Shown: positions 9,001 through 12,000 of the stretch, piece by piece
Position numbering within the stretch: position 1 is the first letter of the stretch
How the letters are laid out: every line of letters starts with the position of its first letter
Program-made: the position numbers
Assembly: GCF_000026545.1 (NCBI RefSeq)
Contig: NC_011601.1
Length of the DNA: 64,000 nucleotides
Strand: one strand, 5' to 3'
DNA from: Escherichia coli O127:H6 str. E2348/69
GTDB lineage: Bacteria; Pseudomonadota; Gammaproteobacteria; Enterobacterales; Enterobacteriaceae

Positions 9001-12000
9001 GCATCAGACTGCTTTTCCCTTTCAGATATCCCATAAAGCCGGATACGCTCATTTTGGGCGGGATCTCCACAAGCATATGGATATGATCTGCACAGCATTC
9101 AGCTTCCAGAATCCGTACACTTTTCCACTCACACAGCTTTCTCAAAATACAGCCTATTGCTCTACGCTTCTCTCTGTAGAACACCTGTCTTCGGTATTTT
9201 GGCGCAAATACTATGTGATATTTACAGTTCCATCGGGTGTGCGCTAAGCTCTTTTCGTTCCCCATTGGGACCCCCTTTTGATTTCTTGTTTGACACTTGC
9301 AGTTGCCAGACCGCAAGGTGTTTTAACAAATCAAAAGGGGTTTTAATAACTGGCTCAAAGCTGAAAGCTTTCCGGAACCCCCAGCCTAGCTCTGTCTCTT
9401 ATACACAAATCCCCACCCGGGGATTTGTGATGTCTGTCAGTCTGCTTTAGGGGGACTCTTTCCATCCGGTAGTTTCCTTCCTCCCCGGCAGCGATTTTTT
9501 GAACTTTTTCCTCACCTGTTGATCTTCTCTTATATTTCATTTTCTTCGGGTCTGTTATGGTACTTTCTGATTGTTATTCATGGGCTAACGAGCAGTTTGG
9601 ACATGCCCGTCTCGGTGATCCGCGTCGTACACGACGCCTTGTGTCACTGGCCTCTTCTCTCGCTCAGCATGCAGGTCTTTCTATTGTGAAATCATCCCAG
9701 TCCACTGCTCAGGTTGAAGGTGCGTACCGCCTGATACGTAACCCGTCTGTGTCCCCGCAAGCCATTGCCGAAGCCGGATTTACCGCCACTGTAAGGGCAT
9801 GTGAGGCTCATCCGCTGCTCCTCGCGCTGGAAGACACCACCACCATTAACTTCAGTCACAGTACGGCATCTGATGACCTGGGGAATACCACCACTAACCC
9901 GAAGACGCGCGGGCTGCTGGCTCACTCTGTCCTGATGTACGCCCCCGACAGCGCCCTGCCAGTCGGTCTTATCGAACAGCAGCGCTGGAGTCGTGCCACG
10001 GACACCTACGGTGTTAAGCACCAGCGAAAAGAACGTCCCTATGAAGAAAAAGAAAGTTACCGCTGGCAGCAGGCTTCGGAGCGCATGGCCGAACGGCTGG
10101 GGGAGATACAGAAACGGGTAATCACTGTCTGTGACCGGGAAGCGGATATCTGGCATTACCTGCATTATAAAGTCAGCCACGGGCAGCGCTTCGTGGTGCG
10201 TGCAGCACAGAATCGCCGGCTGGAAGAAGCACCCGGCAAGCTCTTCGAACTGCCGGAAGTCCTGGCAACCGCGGGAAGCCACACGCTGAATGTGATGCAA
10301 AAAGGCGGGCGGGCAGCCCGCCAGGCCCGGATGTTCATCAGTTACAGCGAAGTCAGCATAAAAAATCCCGACAACAGCGGCCAGGCGCTCCCGCTCACGT
10401 ATGTCTGTTGCCGGGAGCAGGCAGAGGACGGCGCCTGCTGGCATCTGCTGACGTCAGAAAAAGTGGCGAGTGCCGCCGATGCGCGACGTATCGTCAGCCA
10501 TTACGAGCGACGCTGGCTGATAGAGGAATACCACAAGGCGTGGAAAAGTGGTGGTACATGTGTGGAATCGCTGCGAATGCAGACCCGGGATAACCTCGAG
10601 CGCATGGTGGTTATCAAGGCGTTTATCGCGGTGCGGGTGCTGGGCCTGCGGCAGGGCGGTATCAGTGAAGAAACACAAAATGACAGCTGTGAGAAAATAC
10701 TGACGCCGACAGAGTGGAAACTGCTGTGGGTTAAGCTGGAAGGAAAACCGCTTCCGTCACAGATGCCGACACTGAAATGGGCCTGTCTGAAACTGGCGAA
10801 ACTGGGGCGATGGCATGACAGCAAACGCACCGGTCGCCCCGGTTGGGTAGTCATGTGGGATGGCTGGTTCAGACTTCAGGATATGGTTGAGGGTTACCTG
10901 GTGATGAAGTCTCTTGATCAGGAGATCTGATCAAGAGACAGAGCCTAGCTGGGGGTTTTCTGTGCACAATAAACCGCCAGATGTTTTCTGGCGGTTTGTC
11001 TCAAATTAACGTCGTGTAGCCGCTTTCATCGGTTGTACAAAAGCTTTCAGTGCCGCCAGCATTTTCTCTGGCTCATTAATATGTTGCTCGATGATTTTAA
11101 CGATGGCCGAACCAGAAATCGCGCCTGCAGCTCCTGCATCAATCGCTGCTTTTACCTGGTCCGGAGCGGAAATACCAAATCCCTGCAATGGAGGTGCAGC
11201 GTTGTACTCTTTCAGCTTTGCAACCAGATGATTGAGGGGTAACGCGGCGCGGTTTTCTGCGCCGGTCACGCCCGCACGCGACAGCAAATAGGTGTAACCA
11301 CGACCGTAAGAGGCTATCTGGCGCAGCAAATCATCGTCGGCATTCGGTGGGCAAATAAAGATAGGTGCGACATTATGACGCAACGCGGCCTGGCGGAAGG
11401 GCGCGGACTCTTCCACGGGCACATCGGCAACCAGCACCGAATCGACGCCGACTTTCTCGCACTCGGCATAAAACTCATCAATGCCTTTGTTAAACACCAG
11501 GTTGGCATACATCAAAAGGCCGATGGGAATGGTCGGGTGCTTCTGGCGAATGAGTGCCAGCACCTCAAAGCACTGCGCCGGGGTTACTCCCGCCGCAAAA
11601 GCACGCAGTGTGGCGTTTTGAATCGTCGGGCCATCCGCCAGTGGGTCGGAGAAGGGGATGCCTAACTCCAGCGCGTCAGCACCGGCTTCAATTAGCGTAT
11701 CGATAATTTTCAACGACTGCTCAATGCCCGGATCACCGAGGGTGACGAAAGGAACGAATGCGCCTTCTTTGCGCTCCTTCAACTGGGCAAACAGAGATTC
11801 GTAGCGTTCCATCAGATTTCCCCTCGTGCTTTCAAAATATCGTGAACGGTGAAGATGTCTTTATCGCCGCGACCGGAAAGGTTAACCACCAGTAGCTGCT
11901 CTTTTTCCGGATTTTCGCGCATCATTTTCAGCGCATGGGCCAGGGCGTGGGAGGATTCCAGCGCCGGGATGATCCCTTCATGCAGGCAAAGCGTTTTAAA

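Follow-up and report, generated by a model that had tools for sequence, protein, structure and literature searches.

The window analysed here, a 64,000-nucleotide (nt) stretch of contig NC_011601.1 of Escherichia coli O127:H6 str. E2348/69 (assembly GCF_000026545.1), contains two copies of ISEc13, an insertion sequence (IS) of the IS50 group in the IS4 family, and at the right end of this element the last codons of the transposase gene are complementary to the transposon end. Copy 1 (1550 bp; 9392..10941, plus strand) was delimited by its ends, its target duplication, an identical second copy and the uninterrupted form of its target. It begins with an outside-end-like terminus (CTGTCTCTTATACACAAAT; 9392..9410, plus strand) that matches the outside end (OE) of IS50 at 17 of 19 positions and finishes with a 19-bp inside end (IE; CTGTCTCTTGATCAGATCT; 10923..10941, minus strand) that is identical to the IS50 IE at 19 of 19 positions; the IS50 ends were read directly from a real IS50R copy. 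The transposase gene (9557..10930, plus strand) encodes 457 amino acids ending in ...EGYLVMKSLDQEI-TGA, with its stop codon at 10928-10930. The element is flanked by the 9-bp duplication AGCCTAGCT at 9383..9391 and 10942..10950; the left copy, together with positions 9376-9382, constitutes the left half of a split host hairpin (AACCCCCAGCCTAGCTGGGGGTTTT), and the right copy is followed by its right half (GGGGGTTTT). Copy 2 (54315..55864, minus strand) is identical to copy 1 at 1550 of 1550 positions, lies in inverted orientation and has its own 8-bp duplication, ATCCTGAG. Because of the target duplications, the identical second copy and the uninterrupted targets, the boundaries of ISEc13, and with them the identification of IE positions 3-15 discussed below, are secure.

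The name ISEc13 was adopted because the unit in the window is 100% identical to the E2348/69 copy annotated as 'IS4-like element ISEc13 family transposase'. Its transposase matched the Pfam families PF14706 (Tnp_DNA_bind; 1.3e-19) and PF01609 (DDE_Tnp_1; 2.9e-7), while PF02281 (Dimer_Tnp_Tn5) scored 24.1 bits, slightly below the cut-off of 26.7 bits, and it shares 39% identity with the IS50R transposase over the full length. The Y-(2)-R-(3)-E-(6)-K signature, as defined previously (PMC2266710), is present as Y316, R319, E323 and K330, all invariant in an alignment of 22 sequences. Members of the IS50 group are characterized by 5'-CT termini, a length of 1350-1550 bp and direct repeats of 8-9 bp (Table 1 of PMC2266710); ISEc13 has CTGTCTCTT... 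at both termini, a length of 1550 bp and repeats of 9 bp (copy 1) or 8 bp (copy 2).

Positions 10909-10941 read GTCTCTTGATCAG-GAGAT-CTGATCAAGAGAC-AG, in which a repeat finder identified a perfect inverted repeat of 13 bp. The inner arm (GTCTCTTGATCAG; 10909..10921, plus strand) consists of the third base of a Lys codon and the following S, L, D and Q codons, the loop GAGAT comprises five nucleotides (10922..10926, plus strand), and the outer arm (CTGATCAAGAGAC; 10927..10939, plus strand) is the complement of IE positions 3-15 and includes the stop codon of the transposase gene. The initial annotation of this region had reported a perfect 12-bp inverted repeat at 10900-10941, with the terminal copy as the transposase-binding end and the inner copy in the final transposase codons. 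The repeat is real and is located at the right end of ISEc13, but it is 13 bp long and the start coordinate 10900 takes in 9 extra bases. Both assignments were borne out, the former by the complete identity to the IS50 IE and the latter by an open reading frame that ends in ...KSLDQEI-TGA. Three GATC sites are present (10916, 10924 and 10929); their likening to the Tn5 inside end is correct for the GATC of the end itself but not for the inverted inner copy, which IS50 does not have. The structure is rare in its sequence context. In the window, a perfect 13-bp stem with a loop of 3-20 nt occurs only four times, and two of these are the two ISEc13 copies (54317-54329/54335-54347 in copy 2, the same as in copy 1), whereas block shuffles contained 0.04 on average and only 6 of 200 shuffles contained any. 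Folding of positions 10895-10950 yielded -23.3 kcal/mol (z = -3.7) for RNA and -14.4 kcal/mol (z = -4.9) for DNA.

A protein search identified >1300 relatives of the ISEc13 transposase. We read the 3' ends codon by codon at 80 reference-genome loci, in four closer relatives and at 24 metagenome loci (loci are designated L001, L011 and so on below), and counted codons in 33 non-redundant representatives with ≤90% mutual identity that extend down to ~50% protein identity (one at 42%). The C-termini of the relatives read ...EGYxLA(K/M/Q/L)SL(D/E), followed by 0-6 variable residues. In this motif, the Ser codon is TCT in 32 of the 33 representatives, the Leu codon is CTT in 30 of 33 and the Lys codon, where present, is AAG in 18 of 18, whereas the same genes use these codons for only 16%, 17% and 32% of their Ser, Leu and Lys residues, respectively. 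The codon preceding Ser ends in G in 30 of 33 representatives even though the residue differs (K, Q, M, L, R or I), with AAG in 18, ATG in five, CAG in four, CTG in two and others in four. This makes a clear contrast to Gly, Tyr, Leu and Ala a few codons further upstream, four invariant residues for which every synonymous codon is in use. The resulting conserved string, G-TCT-CTT-GA, is the exact complement of TCAAGAGAC, which corresponds to IE positions 3-11. The nine core pairs thus defined are formed in 25-26 of 26 distinct sequences. Synonymous replacement of the C-terminal codons weakened the predicted fold in all 30 elements examined (mean z = -3.2); when the codons of the loop alone, of which 1-2 are free, were shuffled synonymously as a probe for selected apical pairing, z was -0.7.

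The core of the stem is constant, but its surroundings are not. The loop between the arms varies from 5 to 22 nt in length among the relatives and also varies in sequence, and the stop codon lies 14, 20/21 or 26 nt before the element end, placing it within the loop in some elements. The arms are 12-13 bp long in the ISEc13 subclade and 9-12 bp long in the Vibrio, Shewanella and Xenorhabdus types. L114 (1613-1647 and 217-1623), a deep-branching element from a metagenome, has its arm CTGTCTCTTGA downstream of the codons that correspond to 'ALD', where it is translated in a different frame as Ala-Val-Ser-stop; this arm includes the terminal CT and matches the IE of the element itself, not its divergent OE (CTATCTCTGCT...). 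On a rough neighbour-joining tree, the hairpin occurs throughout the crown clade and on some deep branches, such as a Psychromonas element at 42% identity; one nested subclade, the ISPlu9-type elements of Photorhabdus, has lost it. In E. coli, mutations in either arm are seen in decayed pseudogene copies. A comparison with relatives had been proposed in the initial annotation as a check that could expose the palindrome as a peculiarity of one copy; the palindrome turned out to be present in the relatives and to be held at synonymous sites. These patterns, at the level of sequence, show the palindrome to be a selected module, in which IE positions 3-11 (3-15 in ISEc13) are kept complementary to the last conserved codons, nnG TCT CTT GA. 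The last 31-40 nt of the element are thereby predicted to be able to form a stem-loop, with 2 nt left between it and the terminus. The constraint is real and old and is one on nucleotides, not on the protein: neither the length nor the sequence of the loop is fixed, and the stop codon may be placed in the loop or within the 3' arm, whereas silent sites are held.

The clade carries a second structured element at its other end. Just inside the OE, an inward-facing intrinsic terminator of the form AAATCCCnnnn-loop-nnnnGGGATTTTTTTTGAAC is present, and its stem shows compensatory changes between elements (first ~60 nt of L011, L016-L059 and L085-L090). ISEc13 contains a variant of this clade terminator without a T-run, the hairpin CACAAATCCCC-ACCC-GGGGATTTGTG (9404..9429, plus strand), and the terminator scan made no call at either end of ISEc13. 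The Photorhabdus ISPlu9-type subclade is without both the OE terminator and the IE hairpin; therefore, the two hairpins co-occur. Within the transposase gene, terminator-like hairpins with T-runs were also observed on the antisense strand, for instance at 10304-10322, 10367-10385 and 10465-10477 (minus strand). Five such sites were found against 1.5 expected from shuffles, the strongest being GGCGGGCTGCCCGCCCGCC-TTTTT, and these hairpins might stop transcription coming in via the inside end.

Inspection of the insertion sites revealed that elements of this clade have entered host hairpins at the loop, and that their 8-9 bp duplications are often palindromic themselves (flanks of L011-L090 and L085-L090). 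In Vibrio, Shewanella and Alishewanella, the targets are intrinsic terminators of the bidirectional kind; in Enterobacterales, they are BoxC-like palindromes, CCCTCTCCC...GGGAGAGGG. Most targets can work in both directions, having an A-run on the upstream side and a T-run on the downstream side, so that no orientation bias relative to host terminators can be derived from them. We found no description of a preference for hairpin loops as targets in the IS50 group. Copy 1 of ISEc13 conforms to this pattern, being inserted into the terminal hairpin AACCCCCAGCCTAGCTGGGGGTTTT of an IS200-family element (8807-9398 and 10942-10997), with the two halves of the split hairpin at 9376-9391 and 10942-10957. 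This element contains a Y1_Tnp transposase gene (8807-9316, minus strand), and the STnc490/art200 RNA that was detected with Rfam at 9275-9398 belongs to this neighbouring IS200. The uninterrupted IS200-type hairpin, the target of copy 1, is present in multiple copies in other E. coli genomes, and the left flank of a relative from Salmonella (L088) shows this hairpin sequence as well. The junction between copy 1 and trpA was detected only in three O127:H6 E2348/69 genomes, each with 30-36 matching places. The two ISEc13 copies are inverted with respect to each other, with the OE outward and the IE inward as in Tn5, and ~43 kb including trpA and trpB lie between them. In principle, the two copies could move together as a 46-kb composite transposon or serve as a substrate for inversion; each copy has its own target duplication and, therefore, the two represent independent insertions, not a transposed composite.

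We also found perfect 35-bp hairpins, CTGTCTCTTGATCAG-GAGAT-CTGATCAAGAGACAG, that stand alone without an IS body (loci L001, L096, L099 and L120) and consist of 'CT' followed by the final 33 bp of ISEc13 or its relative. One such solo hairpin is located in the trmL-lldD spacer (L001 1499-1533) of 797 of 5426 complete E. coli genomes (15%), where it replaces ~84 bp present in K-12 and is accompanied by an intact duplication on the right side only. No genome contained a full ISEc13 at trmL-lldD with the same left junction. Another is present on plasmid pRAHAQ01 of Rahnella aceris (L096 1201-1235), with no duplication, and a Vibrio-type solo hairpin on a metagenome contig (L120 12-46) has the 9-bp duplication CTTTATGGC on both sides. 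In a pattern scan of metagenomes, at most one of 24 matches, namely L120, was a solo hairpin. The others are mostly full-length elements with CTG before the Ser codon; five matches lie too near the contig end for a direct check, and four of these five match the end of the full-length element L119. Deletion between the 7-bp direct repeats GTCTCTT in the OE and the inner arm would, judged from the sequences, yield exactly the solo hairpin, and this fits L120. A 'nearly precise excision' was considered for all solo hairpins and was not retained as a general explanation: it fits L120, accounts for the E. coli allele only partly and does not fit the Rahnella hairpin, which has no duplication.

What function, then, does the pairing at the IE serve? 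As the stem is conserved, the loop is free and the reading frame is indifferent, the palindrome probably acts as a hairpin in a single-stranded nucleic acid, and our tentative preference, with a probability of about 0.4, is that it forms a 3'-terminal stem-loop of the transposase mRNA and is the partner of the OE terminator. The transposase gene runs into the very end of the element, leaving no space for a terminator; therefore, a site-independent 3' stem-loop could be built solely from the end and the recoded C-terminal codons. Transcripts reaching the flanking DNA would be trimmed by 3' exonucleases back to the stem, and the product of this trimming would be a complete, stabilised open reading frame. 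In such an arrangement, the OE terminator would block incoming transcription, and the IE stem would provide the mRNA with a structured 3' end independent of the insertion site. The two hairpins may thus jointly insulate an element that habitually splits host terminators or hairpins resembling repetitive extragenic palindromes (REP). Among the three roles offered by the initial annotation, a decoy end, a regulatory mRNA hairpin and a second methylation-sensitive site, the mRNA hairpin fits best.

Several observations weigh against this proposal. The intrinsic terminator scan called none at the IE on either strand, and there is no T-run behind the stem: on the sense strand, AG and then the flank come next, and on the antisense strand, TTCATCACC. 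An intrinsic terminator is thus excluded by the missing T-run on both strands. A terminating ribosome must melt the stem, and the folded molecule could be DNA as well as RNA, two forms that sequence does not separate. One may just as well call the complementarity an 'inverted copy of the end', and its conservation, which is as strict as that of the terminal repeat, also fits a cis-acting role in transposition; this strictness is the best argument for a cis-acting DNA role, and the variable spacing is the best argument against it. Moreover, the nine core pairs are invariant and, with the outer arm fixed as the transposon end, no compensatory changes are available. The outer arm is frozen by its role as transposon end and, therefore, the core pairs never vary and covariation is uninformative; what supports the structure is the conservation at synonymous sites. 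Finally, the hairpin is absent from IS50 and several distant members of the group.

Searches for a known RNA family led to no alternative assignment. No Rfam family matched at the palindrome at or above its gathering threshold. One sub-threshold match, to drum RNA (RF02958; 10899-10985), scored 34.4 bits against a gathering threshold of 43, spans the junction between IS and host, and was not found at the identical copy 2, and was dismissed as a chance match. An asymmetry in wobble pairs between sense and antisense RNA was likewise considered and discarded: all three synonymous transitions produce the same mismatch type, coding constraint explains them and the events are few.

The explanations that we regard as next in line place the function of the palindrome in DNA. 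The inner arm may be a second, inverted transposase-binding site that titrates or orients transposase at the IE as a decoy, auto-inhibitory or helper site. The arm indeed repeats end positions 3-11(15) exactly in inverted orientation, and the two are conserved with equal strictness; where the preceding codon is CTG, the copy takes in the full terminal CTGTCTCTTGA, and the arm of L114 follows the IE and not the OE. Nevertheless, such a site is unlikely. A cleavable end, tested as 5'-CTG plus the full 19 bp, is not what the inner copy offers: it starts with AAG in ISEc13. The decoy end proposed in the initial annotation therefore lost ground, as the terminal CT is replaced by AA in ISEc13 and reads AA, AT, CA, CT or AG in the relatives, so that positions 1-2 are not conserved. 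Furthermore, the match covers positions 3-15 in ISEc13 but just 3-11 in most relatives, and in the Tn5 synaptic complex, primary binding is by the N-terminal domain at positions ~6-19. The distance between the two copies ranges from 5 to 22 bp in the relatives, and changes in spacing by 3-17 bp do not keep the helical phase. Somewhat less likely still is a hairpin or cruciform formed in single-stranded DNA, on the lagging-strand template or during conjugative transfer, that sequesters the IE locally and alters end availability; it might in addition prevent long-range snap-back pairing with the OE, which leads to element loss. In keeping with this, the stem is stable as DNA (-14.4 kcal/mol, z = -4.9), the clade targets hairpin-forming DNA, and the IS-less hairpins show that both the palindrome and the two direct repeats GTCTCTT are involved in rearrangements of DNA. 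The three synonymous transitions, which would give G-U pairs only in antisense RNA, are as rare as transversions, which fits strict Watson-Crick pairing. The idea is, however, wholly inferential: we know of no IS4-family cut-and-paste step that requires a subterminal hairpin, and duplex DNA does not readily extrude 9-bp stems that have loops 13-22 nt long.

The other explanations are more difficult to reconcile with the data. The stem could be a pause site that slows the ribosome or RNA polymerase before release of the inhibitory C-terminal helix, favouring binding of the nascent transposase in cis, during translation, to the neighbouring end. A location within the last 6-12 codons and immediately over the DNA of the end would suit this role, and so would the cis preference of the Tn5 transposase, whose own C-terminus inhibits DNA binding. 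Yet the stop codon lies in the loop in several elements and in the 5' arm in L114, where the stem is not fully melted by the ribosome and the hairpin is still kept, and we consider a pause site improbable. That the palindrome is a functionless relic of a duplication, kept because the protein needs a C-terminal K-S-L-D, is more improbable again. The Leu residue aligns with Leu470 of the IS50 transposase, and part of the motif is therefore constrained by the protein. Against this, conserved residues nearby make use of every synonymous codon, whereas codon choice in the motif is fixed; the third base of the codon before Ser is constant although the amino acid changes; elements can do without the tail that follows SL(D/E); and L114 carries the arm out of frame. 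The codon counts, the synonymous recoding and L114 have largely refuted this view already. There is least to be said for a second switch controlled by Dam methylation, which we regard as very improbable indeed. ISEc13 has GATC in both the inner arm and the loop, and inhibition of transposase binding by Dam methylation of transposon ends (PMC3347997) counts in its favour. However, GATC is found in the inner arm of only 9 of 30 elements of the clade, compared with 28 of 30 for the terminal 19 bp, and the second methylation-sensitive site postulated by the initial annotation does not extend beyond this minority.

ISEc13 and its IS50-type end are already known. The pairing of the end with the last codons was not described in the literature that we searched, the coverage of which did not extend to the comparative IS50 analysis of Reznikoff et al. 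2004; the IS4-family review contains nothing on internal palindromes or terminators (PMC2266710), and literature on 'ISEc13' consisted of mobilome lists only. Many natural relatives of IS50 keep the IE paired with the last transposase codons, and the silent positions change as little as the end does. No bacterial cut-and-paste transposon has been studied better than Tn5/IS50, the ends of which have been analysed base by base, and the pairing points to a layer of control or insulation which the IS50 model happens to be without. Taken together, the OE terminator, the insertion in terminator or BoxC loops and the element-less hairpins suggest how a transposon can occupy regulatory hairpins while costing the host little. 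A broader proposition, which at present we find rather doubtful, is that the whole Tn5-like clade is adapted to life inside host hairpins: it would insert into the loops of terminators and REP/BoxC-like palindromes and bring replacement hairpins at both ends, a full terminator within the OE side and a stem composed of the IE and recoded codons, such that flanking genes and the transposase gene keep structured 3' ends, and loss of the body would leave a 35-bp hairpin at the apex of a host palindrome. If this is true, the leftover 35-bp hairpins could be a source of new extragenic palindromes. If, on the other hand, the stem is merely a modest mRNA stabiliser, the pairing would be a useful annotation detail and not a discovery.

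The relationship of this structure to known systems can be summarized as follows. The IE of IS50 (Tn5) resembles that of ISEc13 in the 19/19 end, in the TGA at the same place within it, in the GATC that it contains and in the Tn5-type architecture of the transposase. It differs in having no inverted inner copy, its last codons being gcc aag gat ctg atg gcg cag ggg atc aag atc. IS200, like ISEc13, carries hairpins of its own right at the element end, and an IS200-type hairpin is itself the target of ISEc13 copy 1. The left-end terminator and the stem-loop in the 5' untranslated region (art200/STnc490) of IS200 insulate transposase expression from the surroundings (PMC4513863). However, the IS200 hairpins are on the 5' side, non-coding and without a DDE recombination site, whereas the ISEc13 hairpin has coding sequence as its 5' arm and the end bound by transposase as its 3' arm. 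REP sequences with their composite forms, the bacterial interspersed mosaic elements (BIME), and BoxC resemble the ISEc13 stem in being stable, without a U-run and located on the 3' side of a gene. Palindromes of the REP/BIME and BoxC type act as mRNA 3' stabilisers, and the proposed role, as a barrier to 3' exonucleases (PMC1525189), is one that the ISEc13 stem would share. These repeats are host intergenic sequences, whereas the ISEc13 stem is composed of a transposon end and codons and travels with the element. For the solo hairpins, the counterpart is found in Tn10, for which remnants of 'nearly precise excision' were reportedly described by Foster and co-workers in 1981. The Tn10 remnants resemble the solo hairpins in being what a deletion between short direct repeats within an inverted-repeat structure would leave, but, unlike them, the solo hairpins of E. 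coli and Rahnella are without an intact duplication on one or both sides.

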